Notes under the pieces: model-generated
Told to the model about the DNA's origin: nothing
What the model saw: the letters and a program-made list of their open reading frames with translations, nothing else
The model's database searches: none
In this document: piece after piece, positions 2,996 through 26,035 of the stretch
How the letters are laid out: each line of letters begins with the position of its first letter
How positions within the stretch are numbered: the first letter of the stretch is position 1
Made by a program: the position numbers and the translations under genes
Origin: a virus
Taxonomy: Duplodnaviria > Caudoviricetes
Virus record (IMG/VR): IMGVR_UViG_3300006055_000003
Location: 1 to 28,654 of that record
Length of the DNA stretch: 28,654 nucleotides
Direction: 5' to 3' (one strand)

Positions 2996-3661
2996 CTAGA
3001 TGCCGGTGAGAGCGTTGGTCTCGGTCGAGATGTTGTTGCGGACGACGATCTTTTGAAACTGAGCGAGCGCGGCGTTGTAGGGGTCCACATCGAATCCGAT
3101 GATGTTGACCTGAAAACCCACAGTCGTGGCCGGCGCGGTGTTGGCGTCGAGTTGCCAGCCGGAAAGGCCGCTGGTCGTGCTTCCGGTCCCGGCGACAAGG
3201 CAGGCGTTGAGGCCGATGTTGCTGAGAGGAATGGCGGTGCCGGCCACACCACCGAAGTTGTTGCTGGACTGAACAAGGAATTGCGCCTCGGGGTCGTCGC
3301 AAACGAGGGCGTAATAATCGAGCGCCGTGGTGGCAGGGCGGGAAATCATGCCTCCCGTGCCCCCCAGACCCCACAGGGAAGGCGTCTTGCCGCTCCCGGC
3401 GGTGCATGTACCCAAGAAGCCGACAATGGCCCCCGTGATCCGGTTGGTAGTCCCTCCGGTGGCCAGATCGACGGCCATGATGCCGTTGGTGTCGGCAGCG
3501 GCGTGAATCTTCACCACGGGATCGCCGACGAAAAGGGCGTTGGTTTGAGCCTGCGGGATGAAATATTTCCGCATCCGAAAGGATGTCACAGCCCCATCAA
3601 GGCGCGTGACGACACGAAGGCCGTAGGGAGTGTTCGGATTGATGACAGTCGAGACGGTCAT
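2996..3661 (-). CDS. Capsid decoration / minor head protein
   Basis: NxPYGLR start, LFVGDPV and VCDDPEAQF motifs; directly upstream of the capsid gene. Confidence 0.65.
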   Translation of the reverse strand: MTVSTVINPNTPYGLRVVTRLDGAVTSFRMRKYFIPQAQTNALFVGDPVVKIHAAADTNGIMAVDLATGGTTNRITGAIVGFLGTCTAGSGKTPSLWGLGGTGGMISRPATTALDYYALVCDDPEAQFLVQSSNNFGGVAGTAIPLSNIGLNACLVAGTGSTTSGLSGWQLDANTAPATTVGFQVNIIGFDVDPYNAALAQFQKIVVRNNISTETNALTGI

Positions 3662-5362: not shown

Positions 5363-5806
5363 CTATTTGGCAGCCCTCTCGATAATGGCCCCGCAGTCTT
5401 TGTCCTTGACGATCCGGTAATCCTTGCCGTCACGCCCAACGAACACGCCGCCAGCGTATTTGGCAAACCACACGATATCGCCGACGCCGGGTTTCTGAGC
5501 ATCGTCGGGCCAAGTGTCGTAATTCCACGCAATCGGGCTCATGGCGATGATGCGGCCCATCTGCATCGCCATTTCAAGCCGTTCCTGCGACTCGTCGGGA
5601 AGGTGGATGCTGCCAATCTTATGCGGCCGGATGCTTGGCGCGACGATCACGTTGTATTCCACCGGCTCAAGGCCAGGATTGCAGTCGGCGACCGATGGCG
5701 TCTCGAAAGCGTCCACGTCCGCCACGCTGCCGAAGCTGGCGAGGGGATTACGGGCGCGGACAGGTCCGGTTCCAATACCTCTGGACAGCGATTGAGGTTC
5801 AGCCAT
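5363..5806 (-). CDS. groES: GroES/Cpn10-like co-chaperonin
   Basis: LEPVEYNVIV...GSIHLPD...GRIIAM...VGDIVWFAKYAG...DGKDYRIVKDKDCGAII matches the GroES pattern. Start moved to the ATG at 5806. Confidence 0.85.
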   Translation of the reverse strand: MAEPQSLSRGIGTGPVRARNPLASFGSVADVDAFETPSVADCNPGLEPVEYNVIVAPSIRPHKIGSIHLPDESQERLEMAMQMGRIIAMSPIAWNYDTWPDDAQKPGVGDIVWFAKYAGGVFVGRDGKDYRIVKDKDCGAIIERAAK

Positions 5807-6179
5807 TATCTTTGCTCCAAATGAAAGCGCCTCGCATGAAAAACCGATGGCGCGTGGTGTCACTCTCAAAAGCGCGCTCGCTTTCCCAAGTCGGCTCAAC
5901 GCGCCATATAAGGGTGTCAGCGCCTTTCCCGGCCGGGAGCGTTTCAGCTAGAGCCCGCTCTTCGATAGAGGCTCGCGCAGCCCCTGTGAGTGCGCCCGTG
6001 ACGATCGAATATCGAAGCTGCTCCCTGCTATCAGGATTTGGCCAGACGAAATTAAAGGCTCTGGGAATGGGTTCGTCGCTCGCGGGGCCTTTATCAAGCT
6101 CATAAGAGATTGCCGCCATATCCGCGACGTGAACGGTGCGCCCCGCCTCCATGAGCCCCTTTACACTATCCATTGCCAA
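5799..6179 (-). CDS. Hypothetical protein (LxWRxxP...MRxxF motif)
   Basis: Overlapping start/stop coupling within the operon; resembles 6528..6863. Confidence 0.55.
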   Translation of the reverse strand: MAMDSVKGLMEAGRTVHVADMAAISYELDKGPASDEPIPRAFNFVWPNPDSREQLRYSIVTGALTGAARASIEERALAETLPAGKGADTLIWRVEPTWESERAFESDTTRHRFFMRGAFIWSKDNG

Positions 6180-6863: not shown

Positions 6864-9063
6864 TGGTTTTTCCTTCGGAGGCTTCGGATGGGGCTTCTTG
6901 GGGCTCGCCGGGCACGTTCATGCCCTCGGTCCCCACACGGTGGGCTTCCTGATGCAGTTTATGGGTCTGGACGCCGATATTGCCCATGACTTCCACGGTC
7001 TCGGCTCGAGTGAGGTTGGATTGGGCCTCGTCCTGCACCGATAGCGCGCCGGTATGTTGCGCCTGGGCATTCTTGAGGGCCGCCGATGCCGCCAATTCCT
7101 GAACCTTGGCGACCAATTCAGGGTTGGGAGGGACCGTAGCCATAAATTGCTCTGGCCGGTCATATTCAAGGGCCTCCAAGAACATGGTGGCTAGAGCCTG
7201 AGCTGGCCCCGCCTGCGTCATGCCGGCGGCCATGCCGAGGGGGCTTTCCGCGAACTGGATCGTGGCCTGCATCCGGCTGATCTTCTGCATCTTGGTGACG
7301 ACGGATGGGTCTGCGATGGGTTGAATGTCTGTTCCGTCGCCTGAGAAGTCCTGGTCGAAGTCACCGCCGGTCAGCTCGGTGTATTGGTGCCGGATTTCGT
7401 CCGTCGCCCACCGCTTGAGGCAGTGATACATGAGGCGGAACTCGTCTCGGAACCCGCGATAGAGGCGCTTGTAGATGGCGCTGAAGACCTGAAGAGCCTG
7501 GTTTTGGAGAGCCAGAGTCGTGCCCACCGGAGCCGTCGATGGCGCGTCTCCGCTGATAACGTCCTTGACGGAGGATATGTCCTTAGCAGCCGCCAACAGC
7601 ATCTCAAGCATCTGCATCGTGACGGGTGAGGGGCTGGGGACGGTGAACTCAAATAGCGCCTGCCGAAGATCACTGCCTCCCGTTGAAACCGTCTGCCACT
7701 CGCCCGGCTGTTTGTAGACCGTGCCTGATTGGCCGGAGCCTTGGAGCCTTACGTTGGCCCCAATAAATCCACCGCCAGCAATCTCAGCTGATCCCGCGTC
7801 AATGAGTTGATTAATCCCCGTGTCAACTGAGGCGGTGATAGCATCAAGGAGGCGAGCCAATCCGAGGCCGTAAAATCTGCCTCTTGGGTCGGGGAGAAAG
7901 AGGAATAGGGCGAATGGAACCCATCTCTCGATCCTGACGGCATTCGTCTTCTCCTTGTTCAACACCACGTCATCCATGGTGTAGGCCGCTTCGATGCGGA
8001 GCGTCTGCTTGGTCTCCACGTCCACAGTCACGATGTAAGGCTCGGCAACGCCGTCGTGGTCCAAATCCTCCAAGCGGTGCTGCTCGATGAAAACCCGTGG
8101 CTCCTCGGGGTCTTCAGCCTCCGTCACGATGTCGATATCGCGGTATTGACCCATCATGCGGCGCTGGGCGATCTCGTAGGGGTAGATGTCGAAGTCCTGC
8201 GTGATGCGAGGGCAGCGTGAGAGGCTCTTGGTGTCGTTGTGGACCGTCAGCCTAAGGGCAGATACGTAGTCGCTGGCGAGCCCGTCAGGCCCCATGTAGG
8301 GCTTCTTGAAGCCCACACCGGTCACAGGGCATTCCATGAGCAGGAGGTCTGTCTCGCCCTCCCAGTTGTCCATCTTGTAGAAGATGGTCCAGTTCATGAA
8401 GTGGGCGACACGCTGGGCTCGTGCGGCCTTGGCCTTCGCCAACATGTCAGCGTGGGCGGCGGCCTCTTGCTGCTGCATGGCCTGGGCTTGCATCGCTTGC
8501 GCCTGCTGCGGATTCTGAGGCGGGGGCGTGTCCTGCTGTTCGTCCTTGGTCGTGGGCTGTAGGGCCGGCGGATCGAATGTCTTGACGCCGACAACCTTGT
8601 CGCCCTTGATCAATTCTGGCGTGGCGCGAGCGTTGAATTGCGTGACGGCGGTCGTTAGGAGCGGATAGTGAATGTCCGCCGAGCCTTCCCAGACCCCATC
8701 GCGCCTGAAGTCCTCATCGTCATCGGTCTCTTGAACCGCGAGGGCTAGGCCGCGCTCGGCGGTGGCGATCCAGGTGGAGCGACTAGCCTTATCAATTTCC
8801 CATTCTCGAACCGCATCCAGTCCGATGGTATCGACGACTCCCGGAGCGAGGAGCGAACTAATATCTCCGCCGGCCGCTGCAATCCGATGCAGGAAGACGA
8901 GGCCGTCTGGTAGAGGCGGCGTTTCCGAAGTTGCGCCTTCAGGATCGCCTTGACCTTCTGAGGCGTCATTGACCGATGCTCCAGGGTTGCGGGTGTCGAT
9001 GTGGGCTTGAGGGCCATCGACGGGGTAGACCTGTCTCACACGAGTTTGAGCACCGCGAGGCAT
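6814..9063 (-). CDS. Portal protein (P22-like)
   Basis: 749 aa following terL; W.GSADIHYPLL..A..QFNARA..EL, FYGLGLARLL, INQLIDAG, APVGTTLAL and FSAIYKRLY motifs; helical C-terminal region. Confidence 0.85.
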   Translation of the reverse strand: MPRGAQTRVRQVYPVDGPQAHIDTRNPGASVNDASEGQGDPEGATSETPPLPDGLVFLHRIAAAGGDISSLLAPGVVDTIGLDAVREWEIDKASRSTWIATAERGLALAVQETDDDEDFRRDGVWEGSADIHYPLLTTAVTQFNARATPELIKGDKVVGVKTFDPPALQPTTKDEQQDTPPPQNPQQAQAMQAQAMQQQEAAAHADMLAKAKAARAQRVAHFMNWTIFYKMDNWEGETDLLLMECPVTGVGFKKPYMGPDGLASDYVSALRLTVHNDTKSLSRCPRITQDFDIYPYEIAQRRMMGQYRDIDIVTEAEDPEEPRVFIEQHRLEDLDHDGVAEPYIVTVDVETKQTLRIEAAYTMDDVVLNKEKTNAVRIERWVPFALFLFLPDPRGRFYGLGLARLLDAITASVDTGINQLIDAGSAEIAGGGFIGANVRLQGSGQSGTVYKQPGEWQTVSTGGSDLRQALFEFTVPSPSPVTMQMLEMLLAAAKDISSVKDVISGDAPSTAPVGTTLALQNQALQVFSAIYKRLYRGFRDEFRLMYHCLKRWATDEIRHQYTELTGGDFDQDFSGDGTDIQPIADPSVVTKMQKISRMQATIQFAESPLGMAAGMTQAGPAQALATMFLEALEYDRPEQFMATVPPNPELVAKVQELAASAALKNAQAQHTGALSVQDEAQSNLTRAETVEVMGNIGVQTHKLHQEAHRVGTEGMNVPGEPQEAPSEASEGKTNGPSTPGPTPSPLAAA

Positions 9064-15898: not shown

Positions 15899-15926
15899 AC
15901 GATAGCGCAAAAAAATCGTTCGTCAA
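15899..15926 (-). promoter_or_regulatory. Leftward sigma70-type promoter
   Basis: TTGACG-N16-TATCGT, followed by 6 nt and then the ATG. Confidence 0.65.
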
Positions 15927-15940
15927 TGTGAAAATATGCG

Positions 15941-15968
15941 TTGACACGTTCGCGGCGATGCGTATTGT
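15941..15968 (+). promoter_or_regulatory. Rightward sigma70-type early promoter
   Basis: TTGACA-N16-TATTGT upstream of 15996. Confidence 0.65.
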
Positions 15969-23050: not shown

Positions 23051-23379
23051 TGGCGCGCGAGGCTGGGGTTCACCTACGGACCGGCGCGGGCGCGATTGCC
23101 TGTAATTGTGGCGTCCGTTGGTCATCGCGCATTATCACAAGCACTACATCAACTTATATCGTATCTTGTAAAGGGTGCCTCCGAACGAAGGCGTTTCGTG
23201 ATGCCGCTAACAATAGACCAAAAACCAAGGCAGAAATAGCCCTAATATCCGCGCTTAATAGGCTTGGGAGCATGGAGGCGTTTCATGTGGCGCGGGCCTT
23301 CTCCGAACCGCAGGACACCGAGTTATTGCTACGAATTAAATACGCCAGAAACGCTGTCTATAATTTTGGTGAACCATGA
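23050..23379 (+). CDS. Hypothetical protein with Cys motifs
   Basis: TGATG coupling; CNCG and VSCKGC. Confidence 0.5.
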   Translation: MAREAGVHLRTGAGAIACNCGVRWSSRIITSTTSTYIVSCKGCLRTKAFRDAANNRPKTKAEIALISALNRLGSMEAFHVARAFSEPQDTELLLRIKYARNAVYNFGEP

Positions 23380-23810
23380 CCCATCTTGGCGTTGAGCGAG
23401 AGGAGGCTCGGCACAAGGCTTCACATATCGGTGCGCCAGCCTGTTTCGTGCTTGAGTTAGCCTGCCAAAACCTTCACCGCGCGTTCTGCCGAGACCCGTC
23501 TGGCGGAGGCATCTATCTTGTCGGCTCGGCAGGGGAGCGAGCGGACTGGCGCGACGTGGACGTGCGGTTGATCCTTCCCGACGATGAGTTCGACTTGCTG
23601 TTCCCCTACTGCGGCGGCTCTAAGGCCGTCAGATGGGAGTTCGACCCCCGCTGGATCATCATGACGGCTGCCATTTCCGATCACCTGTCCCGACTGACCG
23701 GCCTACCAATCGACTTCCAATTCCAACCCCAAGGCCACGCGAATGAACGCCACAAGGGCCGTCGCAACGCGCTCGGCATGATCTTCGCTACGGAGACGCC
23801 CTATGAGTAA
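23376..23810 (+). CDS. Stand-alone Pol-beta-superfamily nucleotidyltransferase-like protein
   Basis: YLVGS-x8-DVDV signature (hGS...DhDh) plus a third Asp in LPIDFQ. Confidence 0.7.
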   Translation: MTHLGVEREEARHKASHIGAPACFVLELACQNLHRAFCRDPSGGGIYLVGSAGERADWRDVDVRLILPDDEFDLLFPYCGGSKAVRWEFDPRWIIMTAAISDHLSRLTGLPIDFQFQPQGHANERHKGRRNALGMIFATETPYE

Positions 23811-24807: not shown

Positions 24808-24996
24808 GTGGAGGACTATCTAAACGACCCAGAATTTGTTTGGATCATCCATAAACATCGGGTGACAGGAGAACTTCTGGGTCCATCTGTGCCGTTCAGC
24901 ATTCCCACCCGTGTGGTTTACGCAATATTGTCAGATGTTGGTTGGCTTGAAGTGCCATATGACGAGAGGGATAAGTGCGGCGCTCTATCCCGCTGA
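24808..24996 (+). CDS. Last early-operon ORF (hypothetical)
   Basis: GTG start just after the upstream stop; 3' end runs antisense into the ncRNA. Confidence 0.4.
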   Translation: MEDYLNDPEFVWIIHKHRVTGELLGPSVPFSIPTRVVYAILSDVGWLEVPYDERDKCGALSR

Positions 24997-25113
24997 GCTA
25001 CCTTTGGTCCCCCTTGCAATCTGACGATCCACCGCCCTACCGTGCGCACGTCGGAACGATTTTGTGTCGGACCTCTTGGGGGAGGGTTGGATTCGAACCA
25101 ACGACCTCCGCGT
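24976..25113 (-). ncRNA. Circularly permuted tRNA-like RNA (T-arm, closed acceptor stem, D-arm; YrlA-like order)
   Basis: Minus strand: A-CGCGG-AGGTC-GTTGG-TTCGAAT-CCAAC-CCTCCCCC-[64 nt]-GGGGGA(CCAAA)GG-TA-GCTC-AGCGGGATA-GAGC-G-CCGCA. Confidence 0.75.
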
Positions 25114-25119
25114 AAAGAC

Positions 25120-25148
25120 AACCTATTCCACTCAATGCGGAAGCGCAA
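25120..25148 (-). promoter_or_regulatory. sigma70-type promoter for the tRNA-like RNA
   Basis: TTGCGC-N17-TAGGTT, then 6 nt, giving +1 at A 25113. Confidence 0.55.
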
Positions 25149-25168: not shown

Positions 25169-26035
25169 CTAAGACGAAGGCACGTTCGCGGCGACGAAGG
25201 CTTGGAACTTGGCGACCGCCTCGGGGCCATCGACGAAGCTCTCGCCCTTGCCGGGGCTGTCGAAGATGCGGATGAGCTTGATCGCCGGGCAGAGCGTCCC
25301 GACGCTGGCCATGTCGGTGAAAAACGAGACCTGATTGACCGCGTAGGCTCCGGTCGCGGTGATGCCCATGGGAACGCCCATCTTGCCGTAGGTGGCGCAA
25401 GCTACGGCCACCACGCGGGCAAAGCCGCCGGGCTTGGCCGTGAGGTCGCGATCAAAGCGGTCGGCTGCGATCACATCCACGTTCGCGACGCCGGGGAAGT
25501 AGGGGAGCGAGTCCGCCCCTCCCCCGCTCGGAGCCCAGATGCGCGACACCCAAGGCGGCAGGCGAGCGAAGAGGTAGTTCCACGTCGCGACGTAATCGGC
25601 TGGCGTTCCACCGTTCGCCGTGGCCTTTGCCGGTAGGTTCATTTCCCAACAGAAGCGGACGAAGACGGGCTTGCCGTAGGCTTTGATCGACGAGGCGAAC
25701 GAAGCAATCCACGCGTCCGACGAACCGTCCGTGACGCTCGCCAATGTTGCCGGGCAATCGAGGTCGATCATCGGATAGCCGGGGCCGGTCAGGGTCGGGA
25801 ACTTGGAGCCGAACTTGACGTAGATGGGCGATATGCCGGGAGCGACATTCGAGAAGGGCGACGGAACACCGGGACCCGTCTGTGCGCCGATCAGGAGGCC
25901 GTGCGAGGGGATGGGGACCTTGCCGGGTGTCTTCGGCGCGGCGGGTGGCGTGACGGGCTGTGGCGCGTTCCCTGGGGGCGTAGTGGCTACGCAGGAGCCA
26001 AGGGTGAGGGCGGCTAGGAGGGTGGCGCGGATCAT
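25169..26035 (-). CDS. Lipoprotein with GH26-like TIM-barrel domain
   Basis: Signal peptide with lipobox LGSC, Pro-rich linker, GKPVFVRFCWEMN, YFPG...VDVIAAD. Confidence 0.75.
   Translation of the reverse strand: MIRATLLAALTLGSCVATTPPGNAPQPVTPPAAPKTPGKVPIPSHGLLIGAQTGPGVPSPFSNVAPGISPIYVKFGSKFPTLTGPGYPMIDLDCPATLASVTDGSSDAWIASFASSIKAYGKPVFVRFCWEMNLPAKATANGGTPADYVATWNYLFARLPPWVSRIWAPSGGGADSLPYFPGVANVDVIAADRFDRDLTAKPGGFARVVAVACATYGKMGVPMGITATGAYAVNQVSFFTDMASVGTLCPAIKLIRIFDSPGKGESFVDGPEAVAKFQAFVAANVPSS

Follow-up and report, generated by a model that had tools for sequence, protein, structure and literature searches.

The locus and its genomic setting

The window, i.e. the whole stretch of 28,654 nt analysed here, is the linear phage contig IMGVR_UViG_3300006055_000003, for which CheckV estimates a completeness of 59%. 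Among its 57 scanned ORFs are genes for a terminase, a portal and a capsid protein, an Erf/Rad52 annealing protein, a GcrA-like regulator, an MT-A70 methyltransferase and a GH108 endolysin. The presence of GcrA points to an alphaproteobacterial host, and so does the gene upstream of the element, which has its nearest relative in a metagenome-assembled genome (MAG) of the Caulobacterales.

The element occupies a gap of 172 nt, on which the lysis-side genes of the minus strand (last stop at 25169) and the early arm of the plus strand converge; 3.5 kb of contig lie upstream of it and 25 kb downstream. The last early gene (24808-24996, plus strand) encodes 62 amino acids and has the homolog P0135, with 26 of 39 residues identical (67%). 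Its frame is the only one of the six that is free of stops and scores best among them, the codon score being slightly negative. Since the final seven codons of this gene are antisense to the D-arm and the anticodon strand of the RNA (an overlap of 21 nt), the 3' flank of the RNA is probably protein-coding on the opposite strand.

On the other side, the lysis-side arm ends with a gene (25169-26035, minus strand) whose product resembles beta-mannanases distantly. It has one close relative (64%), the gene in the Caulobacterales MAG (L002, 9926-10753), which is located at the end of a phage-like region beside a tRNA-Val gene and has no such RNA behind it, and a search of viral contigs with the upstream protein gave no viral locus. 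This gene is probably not a partner of the RNA. None of 16 neighbouring proteins matches a defence gene in PADLOC.

Some other features of the window deserve mention. A phage protein of 144 amino acids (23376-23810, plus strand), encoded 1.2 kb from the RNA and shared with neither of the phages G152 and G153 introduced below, contains the motif GS..DxD, and its predicted fold is nucleotidyltransferase-like (Atlas; the family is below the naming bar). A GroES-like gene (5363-5899, minus strand) lies within the head-gene cluster, and G153 has one too. Where the two arms diverge, promoter-like sites TTGACA/TTGACG stand back to back (15926-15941).

Structure of the element

On the minus strand, between 25113 and 24976, a T-arm is located 5' of a D-arm and all tRNA elbow contacts are present. 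The element starts with A38, the 3' strand of the anticodon stem (25112-25108) and the variable loop AGGUC (25107-25103). The T-arm (25102-25086) follows, with five of five Watson-Crick pairs in its stem (25102-25098 with 25090-25086) and the loop UUCGAAU; the stem sequence GUUGG/CCAAC is identical in the other permuted RNAs L287, L299, L295 and L325. After the acceptor 3' strand (25085-25078) there is no CCA. The acceptor end is closed by an insert of 64 nt (25077-25014), which forms an irregular hairpin and holds the 8-mer GUAGGGCG at 25040-25033. The acceptor 5' strand (25013-25001) has a 5-nt bulge (25007-25003), for which a 4-nt bulge is found at the same place in the relative L151. The eight acceptor pairs can be drawn as 2+6 or, in a slipped register, as 3+5; three contiguous pairs stand next to the T-arm before the bulge. 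The last part (25000-24976) comprises U8 and A9 (25000-24999), a D-stem with four of four pairs (24998-24995 with 24985-24982) and the loop AGCGGGAUA (A14, G15, G18, G19, A20), G26 (24981) and the anticodon-stem 5' strand (24980-24977), and it includes the predicted 3' end of the folded core. The anticodon stem consists of four pairs, A31-C39 being mismatched, and there is no anticodon loop.

The preliminary description had reported swapped tRNA halves without an anticodon loop on the minus strand, and we could confirm every helix that it named, including the eight acceptor pairs around the 5-nt bulge and the CCGC/GCGG anticodon stem. The nucleotides that it had assigned to the tertiary core (U8, A14, G15:C48, G18, G19, G26 and the T-loop), as well as A9 and A20, are also present, and those for the contacts of U8, A9, A14, G15:C48, G18, G19 and the T-loop are kept in L151. 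The insert proposed to close the acceptor end exists as an irregular hairpin, but it is not stable beyond expectation: the acceptor arm of the window folds no better than shuffles (z -0.69), and the z-value for the insert of L151 is 0.8. The folding energy of the element is ordinary (z 0.08), and energy minimisation does not give the tRNA-like fold as its optimum, the free minimum being lower by 2.6 kcal/mol. The T-loop motif and the full D-arm motif each occur only once in the contig, and the order T-arm then D-arm was found in none of 300 Markov-random windows. ARAGORN detected neither a tRNA gene nor a tmRNA in the window.

A relative in a second phage

Metagenomes were scanned for a D-arm with A20 that follows a T-loop at a distance of 65-95 nt. 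The 44 loci obtained are the window, 42 tandem tRNAs (in 34 of them both genes were called, in eight only one, its partner being cut or uncalled) and L151. The sequence of L151 recurs in a provirus record (L195/L292, G152), and the two were treated as one. With a model derived solely from the window, L151 reaches a score of 60.5 bits, as opposed to at most 40.4 bits for other permuted RNAs and tandem tRNAs (24 sources). The permuted order, the bulged acceptor and an insert of approximately 65 nt are all kept in L151, while the phage is otherwise dissimilar. In the alignment of the two sequences, which was fitted to the proposed structure, 49 of 50 cells are paired and five of 25 pairs are changed on both sides. 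Two of these changes concern the four pairs of the anticodon stem, two the five pairs of the T-stem (GUUGG/CCAAC in the window, GGCGG/CCGCC in L151) and one the far end of the acceptor. The permuted order is thus retained with compensatory changes, but the covariation is modest, as 11 of 500 shuffles reach the same level (n=2). Beyond the search pattern, both RNAs agree in the variable loop, in CCUCCC with GGGA-bulge-GG and in the 8-mer of the insert. The Rfam YrlA score of L151 is 26.0 bits.

The phage G152 is 62% complete and has a terminase of another kind, the nearest ones belonging to Ralstonia and Burkholderia phages (62%). Since the GH108 endolysin is the sole gene common to both phages, which have other flanks and other genes around the RNA, there is no conserved partner gene in linkage with it. 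For the gene upstream of the L151 RNA, neither 251 genomes nor cultured phages yielded a match. A 5' hairpin (L151 2775-2820) stands ahead of the relative's RNA, and an element of about 45 nt occurs twice (3064-3105 and ~3350-3395) downstream of the terminator, in a long gene-free stretch before HNH and terminase genes.

These comparisons bear on the question whether the element might have no present function, being either an attachment site or what is left of two decaying tRNA genes in tandem. Tandem tRNA pairs do show the same order of T-arm and D-arm, as they account for 42 of the 44 metagenome matches, and the relative of the upstream gene stands at the end of a phage-like region beside tRNA-Val. 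However, the halves pair with each other (eight acceptor and four anticodon-stem pairs) and co-vary in L151, and the missing halves, which the preliminary description had considered as a possible sign of two ordinary tRNA genes, are absent from the contig. Among 201 alphaproteobacterial genomes, the best matches are confined to the T-arm, with 24 identical nt, and the whole acceptor strand is not covered by any of them, and no integrase is present among the 57 ORFs scanned in the 59%-complete contig. We therefore consider such an origin without function very improbable. A specific parent tRNA was sought and dropped as a candidate, because the T-arm matches tRNAs of many kinds and only the D-loop with A20 points to tRNA-Arg.

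A different reading concerns the acceptor end. The element might be a tether RNA with a moved handle, in which the bulged acceptor arm and a conserved motif of the insert would hold a protein of phage or host origin and the elbow would bring in a tRNA-binding effector. Y RNAs are portrayed as two-module tethers in 10.1101/312249, and both phages keep the position of the bulge, the length of the acceptor arm (85 nt in the window, 80 nt in L151) and the 8-mer GUAGGGCG exactly 32 nt before U8 (in-register p 0.004). Furthermore, both contigs are incomplete (59% and 62%). On the other hand, the whole inserts are no more alike in local alignment than shuffles (p 0.57) and, as mentioned above, fold no better; apart from the endolysin there is no common neighbour gene, and L035, an RNA of the phage G153, does with an arm of 25 nt. 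We regard the moved handle as possible, though rather unlikely.

Relationship to YrlA and other permuted RNAs

With Rfam (E ≤ 5), the sole match in the window is YrlA (RF02553) over the T- and D-arms with 25.7 bits and an E-value of 0.15, the cut-off being 69, so that this check for a known class gave no strong YrlA match. YrlA and the element have in common the order of T-arm, closed acceptor arm and D-arm, the absence of an anticodon loop, the nucleotides of elbow and Levitt pair, the D-stem GCUC/GAGC, a variable and sometimes long acceptor arm, and the occurrence in phages. YrlA domains of this order are described as folding into the L-shape of tRNA and as being modified by TruB and DusA (PMC4201824; 10.1101/312249). 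In contrast to YrlA, the window lacks the GNCGAAN0-1G motif, its outer stem does not exceed chance, and the 59%-complete contig contains no Ro60 gene; its acceptor is broken by a bulge after three pairs (4-5 nt in window and L151), its D-loop has A20, and its score is 25.7 bits versus 69. The T-stem GUUGG/CCAAC also differs from the published GCGGG/CCCG, but the Ro60-linked RNAs L325 and L299 have the T-stem of the window. Judged from its sequence, the core of the element is that of YrlA; we do not file it as YrlA, since neither the motif nor the gene related to Ro60 was found.

The preliminary statement that no Ro60/Rsr gene lies in the window held true. In the contig, which is 59% complete, there was no TROVE domain by Pfam and no tblastn match with eight diverged Ro60 queries that match three control loci, no unassigned frame is long enough for Ro60, and no Ro60/Rsr gene was found within 4 kb on the same strand as the element. 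Pfam likewise detected no TROVE domain in the L151 record (62% complete). The GNCGAAN0-1G motif has no match within 90 nt upstream of the element in the window or in L151, the nearest sequence being GUGGAA in the window, but this test is strict, as the exact motif is likewise missing from several of the RNAs that we found beside Ro60 genes. In addition, six handle motifs of Ro60-linked or handle-bearing RNAs were not found within 90 nt upstream in the window, L151 and L035.

The extra domain at the acceptor end had been taken as the mark that sets the RNA apart from YrlA, and a new Y-RNA-like class had been suggested. As marks of novelty, neither the extra domain nor the weak YrlA score is supported by our results. 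In the alphaproteobacterial genome locus L325, a YrlA directly upstream of a Ro60 gene has the T-stem of the window, an acceptor arm of 54 nt and an Rfam score of 32.3 bits, below the cut-off of 69, and long acceptor arms have been described for YrlA (PMC4201824; 10.1101/312249). Therefore, a long arm and a weak score do not mark a new class.

The weaker bulged outer stem of the preliminary description does exist, with 11 pairs between 25133-25121 and a 3' strand at 24976-24964, but it is not above chance (p 0.15 and 0.55 in one shuffling test, 0.11-0.17 in another) and is probably incidental. Its 5' strand GUGGAA differs from GNCGAA by a single base, the conserved C being missing, with UUAC 10 nt later. 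An interpretation of this stem as a Ro60 handle was dropped after the shuffles and the discovery of the antisense gene. In L151, by contrast, the long stem found at the anticodon position is significant (p 0.0075) and a promoter is missing from the corresponding register, and the handle-less form is therefore not common to the pair. Further candidates were rejected as well: the upstream flank has no match to the ACAGCAA-type handle of other phage RNAs, a long-range stem of 25150-25143 with 24915-24923 was not above shuffles (p 0.17), and the insert as a second D-arm, pairing with a 7-nt-loop hairpin at 24957-24943 (by eye, in both relatives, with registers that differ by 2 nt), was abandoned.

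These data also allow us to weigh whether the element is a true Y RNA with a diverged handle, of which a longer transcript would form the outer stem and bind a host Ro60 or an unsequenced one, thereby sequestering or redirecting Ro60. The 11 possible pairs, GUGGAA with UUAC in the spacing of the published alignment, the long outer stem in L151 and the long acceptor arm of the Ro60-linked L325 would fit, and some of the sampled Caulobacterales and other Alphaproteobacteria carry Ro60 together with YrlA. Against it stand the chance level of the outer stem in the window, the overlap of its 5' strand with the candidate promoter and of its 3' strand with coding sequence on the other strand, the missing C and the absence of such a motif from L151, and a T-stem that is not the published one. 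Taken together, we consider a diverged Y RNA unlikely.

Further permuted RNAs were obtained by a scan for a T-arm with CCUCCC, which gave 20 viral loci: five ordinary tRNAs, one RNA of normal order, L292 and 13 permuted loci, which represent eight distinct RNAs with short unbroken acceptors. The undescribed phage permuted RNAs seen in this analysis (L035, L287, L288, L289, L295, L296, L299 and L026) have the same core as the window, and several of them the same T-stem and a CCUCCC/GGGAGG acceptor. Unlike the window, most of them possess an outer handle and a short unbroken acceptor, and some are found in records with Ro60; only L035 is handle-less with a 3-pair acceptor. A TROVE domain is present in six of the 24 records tested. 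Next to the T-arm, three contiguous acceptor pairs are found in the window, L151 and L035, for all of which no Ro60 was found, whereas the numbers for nine hand-picked handle-bearing RNAs are 7, 8, 8, 8, 9, 9, 4, 5 and 7. L035 belongs to the complete 44.7-kb phage G153, which is without TROVE and whose portal and capsid are related to those of the window.

Several additional observations were made on this wider family. Permuted tRNA modules with a handle of the ACAGCAA/ACCGCAA type occur in L295, L296, L303, L287 and L026. A second handle type, GGUGGUGAAG or GAAGCG ... UACUUC, is carried by permuted RNAs beside diverged Ro60 genes, all below the Rfam YrlA cut-off, namely L168, L170-L172, L177, L180, L187, L188 and L192 from Caulobacterales and L288, L289 and L299 from phages. 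Of the records with modules of the ACAGCAA/ACCGCAA type, the two complete jumbo records G608 and G609 gave no match in the TROVE search, which can miss diverged Ro60 proteins and did so for that of G013. Finally, L197 (~3001-3090), in a record with TROVE, has a tRNA-like RNA of normal order, in which an extension of about 40 nt replaces the anticodon arm and which ARAGORN misses.

The element can also be compared to RNAs outside the Y RNA family. In permuted two-piece tmRNA (Rfam RF04321 and its clan), T-arm and acceptor 3' strand come before the 5' strand and an intervening segment lies at the acceptor end. The window shares the leading T-arm and acceptor 3' strand as well as the segment at the acceptor end, but it has no Rfam tmRNA match and no ARAGORN tmRNA, and it possesses a full D-stem and no CCA.

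Permuted tRNA genes, which 10.1101/312249 discusses for algae and one archaeon, likewise have the 3' half first, a loop-closed acceptor and ends that meet at the anticodon stem. One could assume that the element is such a gene, whose product would be cleaved and rejoined to give a functional tRNA, as happens in some algae and archaea, since the order is that of permuted pre-tRNAs (10.1101/312249) and C32 and U33 follow the 5' half in the window. However, the element lacks a workable anticodon loop and a 7-pair acceptor. The in-silico re-ordering of the halves, a check already envisaged in the preliminary description, resulted in no ARAGORN gene at the default (100%) or 90% threshold for either the window or L151, while L325 passes; at the 80% threshold there was one marginal call (80.2) for the window. 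The acceptor is bulged and without CCA, and the would-be anticodon loops of the two phages differ wholly. According to 10.1101/312249, splicing endonucleases equivalent to those acting on permuted tRNAs are not on record for bacteria. A permuted tRNA gene thus appears extremely improbable.

Candidate promoter and transcript ends

A candidate sigma-70 promoter (25148-25120, minus strand) consists of TTGCGC (25148-25143), a spacer of 17 nt and TAGGTT (25125-25120), with a predicted start at A 25113. Of the promoter originally proposed, the hexamers are at their places, but they match the E. coli consensus in only six of 12 positions, and a consensus promoter scan did not list the site. The hexamers keep the TTG of the -35 region and -12T, -11A and -7T. 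In PMC8407463, the TTG of the -35 region is described as conserved in most phyla and most alphaproteobacterial promoters as doing even without -7T. Sites of the form TTG-N16-18-TA...T occur 18 times in 57,308 positions, the candidate among them, and simple arithmetic from this density gives a chance of approximately 0.002 for such a site in register with the first base of the fold.

TAGGTT ends 12 nt before the variable loop in the window, and TAGAAT does likewise in L035, which is also located at the junction of early and lysis arms, behind a terminator, with a weak -35. By eye, L035 (2439-2630; G153:C1 ~8600-8790) shows a terminator, TAGAAT, a core of 84 nt and then a GC-rich hairpin with a T run. 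This layout supports the arrangement of promoter and then element suggested for the window. L151 has no -10 at the register of the window, a candidate promoter being located about 85 nt upstream (by eye) and a terminator downstream. An own promoter of the element is plausible on these grounds. A scan found no terminator after the RNA in the window.

It could be argued that the element is a cis-acting structure, placed where the late transcript ends or lying antisense to the early arm, which would process, stabilise or insulate RNA where transcription units collide. Its location where the convergent arms meet, the missing terminator of its own, the antisense overlap with the last early gene and the same slot of L035 are in line with this. 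Yet L035 has a terminator that shields it from transcription coming from upstream and lies on the strand of the other arm, L151 is found in a different slot with a terminator downstream, and the full set of elbow contacts exceeds the needs of an insulator. A role in cis is consequently doubtful in our view.

Distribution of the element

The BLAST search with the element gave only short T-arm matches in cultured phages, and that with the L151 element one short match each in phages and plasmids. Strict patterns retrieved 0, 1 (an ordinary tRNA-Met) and 0 loci from viral contigs, and there was no close relative among at least 119 stretches (estimated 280) with the YUAY pattern. The element was not found by pattern in 401 alphaproteobacterial genomes, nor by a model search of 151 Caulobacterales, the nine matches of which are eight tandem tRNA pairs and one short YrlA-type RNA. 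A model search of 50 terminase-related records was weak, since G153's short RNA escapes that tool, and was replaced by a pattern search of 47 such phage records, which detected the element in none of them (0/47) and recovered three of three positive controls. The two-sequence model R2 separates the subfamily poorly, giving short phage permuted RNAs 53-61 bits and a tandem tRNA-Arg pair 54.7 bits. Since the element is absent from the 47 terminase-related records in which the controls were found, it seems to behave as an accessory module, and its patchy presence fits this. Our search of the open-access literature did not turn up a paper on permuted tRNA mimics of phages that lack Ro60.

Possible function

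The best explanation that we can offer, although we hold it tentatively and at somewhat less than even chances, is that this permuted tRNA of the YrlA type without Ro60 motif would serve as a stand-alone, non-chargeable decoy, whose elbow is presented to a host protein that recognises the shape of tRNA. An RNA freely presenting its elbow is favoured because it is the elbow that has been conserved, and not anticodon, CCA, handle or gene context. The element would be transcribed from its own promoter, starting at 25113, to an RNA of approximately 140 nt, whose 3' end near 24976 might be set by trimming, because no terminator follows. The RNA would fold into a tRNA elbow and could neither be charged nor read codons. 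As its acceptor is broken after three pairs, it might also escape processing by RNase P and the synthetases. Such a resistance is a reasonable inference, because in Chen et al. 2014 (PMC4201824) cleavage by RNase P is reported only for YrlA with a 7-pair acceptor; with only three contiguous acceptor pairs, the earlier idea of an RNase P substrate is weakened. The elbow might then compete for a tRNA-binding protein of the host, most plausibly a defence nuclease, a toxin or a sensor. With regard to origin, the element has likely arisen from a tandem tRNA pair or from an existing YrlA and moved between phages as an accessory module.

Several points count against the decoy. L151 with its long stem and without a promoter at this register does not share the handle-less form, the promoter match is imperfect, a terminator is missing, and the tRNA-like fold is not the energy minimum. 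The bulge, the length of the insert and the 8-mer are conserved and would not be needed by a plain elbow decoy. Moreover, there is only one true relative (n=2), and the 59%-complete contig may miss a partner gene. It is also conceivable, although we would put only limited trust in it, that small phages possess a class of Ro60-independent anti-defence RNAs with minimal elbows, an own promoter and an acceptor that is broken after three pairs and thereby evades RNase P and the synthetases. Such RNAs would titrate tRNA-targeting defence proteins, and the present subfamily would carry a second, conserved protein-binding site at the acceptor end.

RNAs of this kind are invisible to ARAGORN and far below the Rfam cut-off, and are therefore missed in phage annotation. 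The elbow-binding effector for YrlA's tRNA-like domain is expected by Wang et al. 2018 (10.1101/312249) and described there as still unknown. An elbow that occurs without the Ro60 motif and without the gene suggests an ability of the elbow to act by itself, and the element represents a minimal bait for finding the factor that binds the elbow of YrlA. If the decoy is true, the element would be an RNA-only counter-defence of phages against tRNA-targeting systems.
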